Shown piece after piece: positions 42,999 through 43,454 of a DNA stretch of 64,000 nucleotides; within the stretch, counting starts at the first letter, position 1; the number at the start of each line of letters is the position of its first letter. The notes under the pieces are model-generated. The model searched no databases. It worked only from the letters and a program-made list of their open reading frames with translations, and was not told the DNA's origin. The DNA is taken from sequence record KX452698. One strand, 5' to 3'. The translations under genes were made by a program, and so were the position numbers. Origin of the DNA: Shigella phage KNP5.

Positions 42999-43454
42999 TT
43001 ATTTTAAATCATCTGCCCAATCGAGTTTAAGAGGTTCTTTGTATTCACGATCTAATACGACCGGAATTTGTACATCACCGCTAAATGATAAGGGCCCAAC
43101 ATTATAAGACAATGTTATATGCGGTGTGTAATCATCAAAATCATGTGTAGCACCTAGTGCCCGCGCATACATGTGTCGACAGCGCAGATATTCAGAATCT
43201 AACACAAGTACAAGAGTCGATCCATCTTGCGTTTTCCATACTTCTAAATGTCCAGAAGAAGCTACTTCAAAACTTCCACTCGATGGAACATACGGAACAT
43301 TTACTCTTGAATAACATATGGTCGAATGAATTTTTTCTCTAGGAACTGGATTAGGAACACGTAAAGTGCGCTGGAGTTCTTCCAGCGCATCAAGTGTTAA
43401 TTCTGAAAACTTAGCTGCTACATAAAGACCCGTTGAAAAGTCTTTAAATTCCAT
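42999..43454 (-). CDS. 57B: Gene 57B product; 2H-phosphoesterase fold, equivalent to anti-CBASS nuclease Acb1 (151 aa)
   Basis: Two H-x-T motifs (HSTI, HITL); position immediately 3' of 57A as in T4. Confidence 0.75.

Follow-up and report, generated by a model that had tools for sequence, protein, structure and literature searches.

The best-described relative of the locus considered here is gene 57B of phage T4, whose product, Acb1, was found by activity-guided fractionation as an enzyme that degrades 3'3'-cGAMP (Hobbs et al. 2022, PMC9117128). Lysates of delta-acb1 T4 lose the cyclic-nucleotide-cleaving activity, which in T4 infection is seen at about 15 min. The enzyme also cleaves cUA and cAAA, and it does not cleave cGG, cA4, or 3'2'-cGAMP; from its action on cAAA, it was proposed to help additionally against type III CRISPR systems that signal through cA3. 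In the absence of CBASS, delta-acb1 T4 grows normally, and on CBASS hosts its growth is reduced >300-fold. The structures of the homologous Acb1 of phage FBB1 display a compact 2H phosphoesterase fold. In T4 numbering, Y12, W74, F107, and W147 make stacking contacts with the bases, E141 touches the adenine N6, and the C-terminal residues 145 to 152 form a lid that closes over the bound ligand. Catalysis is assigned to a metal-independent acid-base tetrad (H44/T46/H113/T115) that cuts 3' of adenosine via a cyclic phosphate intermediate, and the H44A and H44A/H113A mutants are inactive (all PMC9117128).

More recent studies place this enzyme in a second context. Few of the viral 2H phosphodiesterases tested are as promiscuous as T4 Acb1, which breaks down 2'3'-c-di-AMP at the same speed as 3'3'-cGAMP and activates Panoptes; without its lid (delta 145-152), the protein no longer triggers Panoptes and, as the authors interpret it, has lost catalysis (bioRxiv 10.1101/2025.08.21.671373). 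Among Tevenvirinae, phages with an intact acb1 (Bas35 to Bas37) are restricted by type II Panoptes, and escape is seen in Bas43, which has an acb1 nonsense allele, and in selected acb1 mutants, including escapers of Bas35 (PMC13577387).

Against this background, we analyzed a minus-strand open reading frame (ORF) of Shigella phage KNP5 (accession no. KX452698) within a stretch of 64,000 nucleotides (64 kb; hereafter, the window). With a probability of roughly 95%, we read it as acb1 (57B) of a T4-like coliphage, encoding an anti-CBASS 2H phosphoesterase that would work by the mechanism of its T4 counterpart.

Reading frame and gene neighborhood of acb1

Around acb1, a 12-kb piece of the window matches Escherichia phage KNP1 (accession no. 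KX452694.1, an unannotated record) at 99.9% identity and many other Tequatrovirus genomes at 95 to 97%; judged by its sequence, the stretch is that of a Tequatrovirus. The features of the region, in descending order of position, are the following.

45932-46384, minus strand: gene 4
45108-45932, minus strand: gene 2
ending at 44471, minus strand: gene 3
43696-44421, minus strand: gene 1, dNMP kinase
44052-44059, minus strand: match to the T4 late-promoter consensus, TATAAATA, inside gene 1 and 356 nt upstream of 57A
43454-43696, minus strand: gene 57A, tail-fiber chaperone (Pfam GP57, 3.1e-50)
42999-43454, minus strand: acb1 (gene 57B), ATG-to-stop ORF of 151 aa plus stop
43320-43328, minus strand: first catalytic motif of acb1, H43-S44-T45 (T4 H44/T46), CAT TCG ACC
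43113-43121, minus strand: second catalytic motif of acb1, H112-I113-T114 (T4 H113/T115), CAT ATA ACA
43002-43025, minus strand: C-terminal lid of acb1, residues 144 to 151 (T4 145 to 152), LDWADDLK, including W146 (T4 W147), identical to T4
42947-42976, minus strand: hairpin in the 57B-ip5 spacer (RNA fold), part of a 69-nt repeat
42669-42926, minus strand: Ip5-type internal head protein gene, in place of T4 ipI (PHROG 3499, "internal head protein," 1.2e-49)
42413-42598, minus strand: tRNA.4
42002-42412, minus strand: tRNA.3
41709-42005, minus strand: tRNA.2
about 41136-41715, minus strand: RB32ORF135c-like ORF
40219-41049, minus strand: ten tRNA genes

The ORF at 42999 to 43454 is genuine, with an uninterrupted 151-aa frame from ATG to stop on the minus strand, and its surroundings agree with the original prediction, which had placed 57B ahead of an internal-protein gene and the tRNA cluster: on the minus strand, the next gene is the internal-protein gene (42669 to 42926), and the tRNA cluster (10 genes, 40219 to 41049) comes further on. 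Two plus-strand ORFs that lie over acb1 (43157 to 43342 and 43171 to 43314) came without support and were taken as chance ORFs. Upstream, the TAA stop codon of 57A and the ATG of acb1 overlap by one base (TAATG), an arrangement that suggests translational coupling of the two genes. By annotation, acb1 directly follows the tail-fiber chaperone gene in T4, RB32, and other phages of Tequatrovirus, Mosigvirus, Tegunavirus, Krischvirus, and further genera.

The late-promoter consensus within gene 1 recurs at the corresponding site of T4 and of RB32, which makes it a candidate promoter for the 57A-57B pair, although the count of this octamer across the 64-kb window is at chance level (12 found versus 10.2 expected). 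Between positions 42300 and 44700, a sigma-70 promoter scan did not rise above shuffled sequence (13 found versus 9.7 +/- 3.0), and a terminator scan returned 1 candidate, against 1.2 in shuffled sequence. The GenBank and RefSeq records of T4 hold no promoter features for the 57A-57B region.

Family assignment, proposed mechanism, and alternative readings

A BLASTP comparison with T4 gp57B (accession no. NP_049750.1) gave 150 identical residues out of 151 (99.3%; E = 3e-116), the sole amino acid difference being T30 here for S31 in T4. A Pfam search recovered a single significant family, "Anti-CBASS protein Acb1" (PF23474; 202.6 bits against a cutoff of 27; E = 3e-60), whose match spans residues 8 to 149 of the protein and positions 1 to 144 of the 144 in the profile. 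Sequence searches of the PDB recovered the Acb1 of Erwinia phage FBB1 (PDB codes 7T26 and 7T27; E = 1e-61; 67% identity over 141/144 residues) and, at a marginal E value of 0.0048, a divergent viral 2H phosphodiesterase (PDB code 9Q2G). An NCBIfam search yielded nothing for Acb1, Acb2, or Ip5. While a single-sequence AlphaFold2 model of the product was unusable (pLDDT, 38.1; pTM, 0.29), the 67% identity to the solved chain 7T26_A indicates that the protein probably adopts the same compact 2H phosphoesterase fold. Identity to T4, the Pfam family, and the PDB match all uphold the proposal that this is a 57B orthologue of the Acb1 type.

A regular-expression scan of the whole translation located two H-x-[TS] motifs and no more, HST (residues 43 to 45) and HIT (residues 112 to 114), so that both 2H motifs are intact, as had been claimed. 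The claim had put them at about residues 44 and 113, which is right in T4 numbering and wrong for the protein at hand, where the histidines are residues 43 and 112. DNA alignment of the start regions shows that a T4 residue number equals the number here plus 1, because the T4 57B frame opens one codon upstream (ATG ATG versus ATA ATG). Two such short motifs on their own would be weak evidence, and it is the homology described above that carries the identification. We aligned 11 sequences, comprising the present protein, T4, FBB1, and eight orthologues taken evenly down the tblastn ranking, with identities between 86% and 40% (from Mosigvirus, a Klebsiella phage, Tegunavirus, Bragavirus, Krischvirus, an Acinetobacter phage, Pseudotevenvirus, and Schizotequatrovirus). 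Across this range, no variation is seen at H43, T45, H112, T114, or Y11, and hardly any at E140 and W146; both catalytic histidines and both threonines of the tetrad are thus kept, relative to T4 and in all 11 sequences, with no loss of histidine. The base-stacking Y11, W73, F106, and W146 and the adenine-contacting E140 are the same as T4 Y12, W74, F107, W147, and E141, and the lid matches that of T4 exactly. T30 is, from the alignment, a conservative change outside the residues named as catalytic or base contacting. At the codon level, acb1 differs from the T4 gene by six synonymous changes and one nonsynonymous change and from the RB32 gene by five and one, respectively; that the differences are almost all synonymous is consistent with purifying selection.

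The functional assignment is based directly on sequence identity, on synteny, and on the presence of all the functional residues named for T4. With all of these residues and the lid identical to those of T4, we assign the same mechanism with high confidence, and the chemistry and substrate range of this copy are presumed to carry over from the 99%-identical T4 protein. On this model, the product would be a small, metal-independent 2H phosphoesterase that binds the signals made by CBASS cyclases (3'3'-cGAMP, cUA, cAAA, and cAAG). Y11, W73, F106, and W146 would stack on the bases of the ligand, E140 would contact adenine, and the C-terminal lid would shut over the cyclic nucleotide. The H43/T45/H112/T114 tetrad would then cut on the 3' side of adenosine by way of a 2',3'-cyclic phosphate intermediate, and the linear products would be unable to activate CBASS effectors, so that abortive infection would be prevented. 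Expression of acb1 may be tied to that of 57A by translational coupling, perhaps from the late promoter inside gene 1. Being promiscuous, the enzyme would also be expected to degrade the 2'3'-c-di-AMP and cA3 decoys, leaving the phage sensitive to Panoptes. An intact acb1 thus leads us to predict both CBASS evasion and Panoptes sensitivity.

The window contains a second gene of relevance, vs.4 (31627 to 31890, minus strand), which encodes the cyclic-nucleotide sponge Acb2, with a protein 100% identical to that of T4 (Pfam Acb2_Tad1_hairpin, 7e-20). Hence, both known anti-CBASS proteins are present in this phage, about 11 kb apart. Like Acb1, Acb2 is able to set off Panoptes.

One alternative overlaps with the anti-CBASS reading, namely, that the main selective value of the enzyme lies in the removal of other adenosine-containing signals, such as the cA3 of type III CRISPR systems or 2'3'-c-di-AMP. 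The cleavage of cAAA, with the aid against type III CRISPR proposed from it (PMC9117128), and the equally fast degradation of 2'3'-c-di-AMP by the highly promiscuous T4 enzyme (bioRxiv 10.1101/2025.08.21.671373) speak in its favor. However, the sole benefit demonstrated in vivo is the >300-fold effect against CBASS (PMC9117128), degradation of 2'3'-c-di-AMP or cA3 decoys harms the phage where Panoptes is present (PMC13577387; bioRxiv 10.1101/2025.08.21.671373), and the carriage of the Acb2 sponge points to CBASS as a major pressure. We consider this alternative improbable as an account of the main selective value.

Far less probable is that the product is an RNA ligase or RNA repair enzyme of the LigT-like 2'-5' RNA ligase kind. 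The Acb1 and LigT-like families do share the 2H phosphoesterase superfamily, PHROG 755 is described as "RNA ligase," and the T4 RefSeq record, like many records of other phages, gives the same product name. Yet the Pfam 2_5_RNA_ligase2 family (PF13563) reaches only 13.2 bits (cutoff, 27; E = 0.096) over residues 79 to 122, against the 202.6 bits of the Acb1 family, and T4 gp57B itself was identified as a cyclic-nucleotide cleaver whose activity disappears from delta-acb1 lysates (PMC9117128). The name seems to have been passed on by annotation rather than to reflect a tested function.

That the gene is present and nonfunctional in this phage, through silencing or through the T30 change, is barely credible, for although natural and selected losses of acb1 function are known in close relatives (the Bas43 nonsense allele and the Bas35 escapers; PMC13577387), the frame here is full length with neither stop nor frameshift, every named functional residue is kept, the differences from T4 and RB32 are almost all synonymous, the 57A junction and the upstream late-promoter consensus are conserved, Shigella phage Sfk20 has the identical protein, and copies of at least 99% identity are present in 431 phage records.

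For the anti-CBASS reading, the combination of an intact Acb1 with Acb2 predicts resistance to CBASS signaling by adenosine-containing cyclic di- and trinucleotides, and the same carriage predicts that systems of the Panoptes type, with their decoy signals, would restrict the phage. Such predictions are useful for annotation and for forecasting the host range of phage therapy candidates. The finding as such is already known, in that the genome is public and the product is orthologous to, and almost the same as, a protein whose biochemistry, structure, and genetics have been characterized.

The internal-protein gene, its flanking repeat, and the wider window

The internal-protein repertoire of the window is unlike that of T4, with an Ip5-type gene instead of ipI. 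Its product (42669 to 42926) is 100% identical to RB32 Ip5 and 31% identical to T4 IPI, the likeness to the latter lying mostly in the N-terminal capsid-targeting segment; the RB32 record states that Ip5 "replaces ipI." T4 ipIII is without a match in the 64-kb window, and for ipII there is a single weak match (33% identity across 79 aa), which falls within a 157-aa ORF between denV and e (33492 to 33965, minus strand) that has a capsid-targeting-like N terminus (MKTYQEFITE).

Ip1, Ip2, and Ip3 are inhibitors, each of a particular GmrSD type IV restriction enzyme, and these three are the only ones with demonstrated anti-GmrSD targets in the study concerned, which does not mention Ip5 (PMC12373910). 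This bears on the suggestion that counter-defense functions are concentrated around 57B. Its positional part stands, acb1 being beside an internal-protein gene; the neighbor, though, is of the Ip5 type and not ipI. A counter-defense cluster around acb1 is plausible, with such a role for Ip5 and the tRNA cluster being one that we infer.

A 69-nt direct repeat (42616 to 42684 and 42946 to 43014; 83% identical) flanks the ip5 gene, and the ends of the acb1 and ip5 reading frames (D-L-K-stop in each) lie within it. The hairpin that forms part of it in the 57B-ip5 spacer (42947 to 42976) has a folding energy of -17.9 kcal/mol (z = -4.06), and 0 of 200 shuffled sequences fold as well. Its stems differ between the two copies of the repeat yet still pair (GATGAGGTA/TATCTCATC versus ATAGGGT/ACCCTAT). 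An early-promoter-like sequence, GTTTACA-17-TACTAT (42957 to 42985), overlaps this hairpin within the repeat. From its sequence, the repeat resembles the edge of a recombination cassette that carries ip genes. It is conceivable, though we would put the odds well against it, that acb1 marks the constant left edge of a recombination cassette system through which injected anti-restriction (Ip) genes are exchanged; if so, the cassette would couple anti-CBASS and anti-type IV restriction functions in one evolving counter-defense island. Polymorphism and a cassette organization of the ip locus were reportedly described by Repoila et al. in 1994. The RB32 record also already notes the ip cassette organization ("flanked by 43 bp direct repeat"), and in light of both, the cassette reading would be mostly a refinement.

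Farther along, the tRNA cluster (40219 to 41049, minus strand) comprises 10 genes, for Arg, Asn, Tyr, Met/Ile-CAT, Thr, Ser, Pro, Gly, Leu, and Gln. Asn(GTT) and Tyr(GTA) are extra relative to T4 and RB32, whose clusters have 8 genes and are split by the homing endonuclease gene segB, which is absent from the present cluster. Two runs of exactly 99 N (5556 to 5654 and 41416 to 41514) presumably represent masked sequence; the second breaks the RB32ORF135c homologue between tRNA.2 and the tRNA cluster. Elsewhere in the window, tk.4 (macro/A1pp-domain phosphatase; 29471 to 29935, minus strand) and the denV orthologue (33981 to 34391, minus strand) have 58% and 79% protein identity to T4, respectively, against 99 to 100% for their neighbors vs.1, regB, and vs.4; by sequence comparison, this divergence indicates mosaic replacement in the region.

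Comparison with known systems

The 456-nt acb1 gene was found by megablast in 558 phage records, in 501 of them at an identity of at least 95%. Most of the phage records listed label it "hypothetical protein" or "RNA ligase," and few say phosphodiesterase; this naming is a systematic annotation lag or misnomer.

The nearest counterpart is T4 Acb1 (gp57B), which shares 150 of 151 residues, including the tetrad, the stacking aromatics, the adenine-contacting Glu, and the lid. Its gene occupies the same genomic place, straight after 57A and before the internal-protein locus. The two loci differ at their junctions: T4 57B opens with tandem ATG ATG codons and encodes 152 aa, whereas acb1 here has ATA ATG, as in RB32, and encodes 151 aa; T4 57A stops with TGA rather than TAA; and the downstream neighbor in T4 is ipI instead of an Ip5-type gene. 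More distant is FBB1 Acb1 (PDB codes 7T26, apo, and 7T27, with 3'3'-cGAMP), from a phage whose host genus, Erwinia, differs from the host of the present phage. It keeps both HxT motifs and the C-terminal Trp and aligns with one single-residue gap, having one extra residue after the QDG/QSG turn and a Phe in place of W73 (T4 W74). Viral 2H PDE-9 (PDB code 9Q2G, deposited as "Anti-CBASS protein Acb1") is a distant relative that degrades 3'3'-cGAMP and has the two catalytic histidines in common; its lid is N-terminal rather than C-terminal, and, unlike T4 Acb1, it avoids 2'3'-c-di-AMP and does not trigger Panoptes. The LigT and 2'-5' RNA ligase proteins (PF13563) belong to the same superfamily and have two HxT/S motifs, and the acb1 product matches them below threshold.
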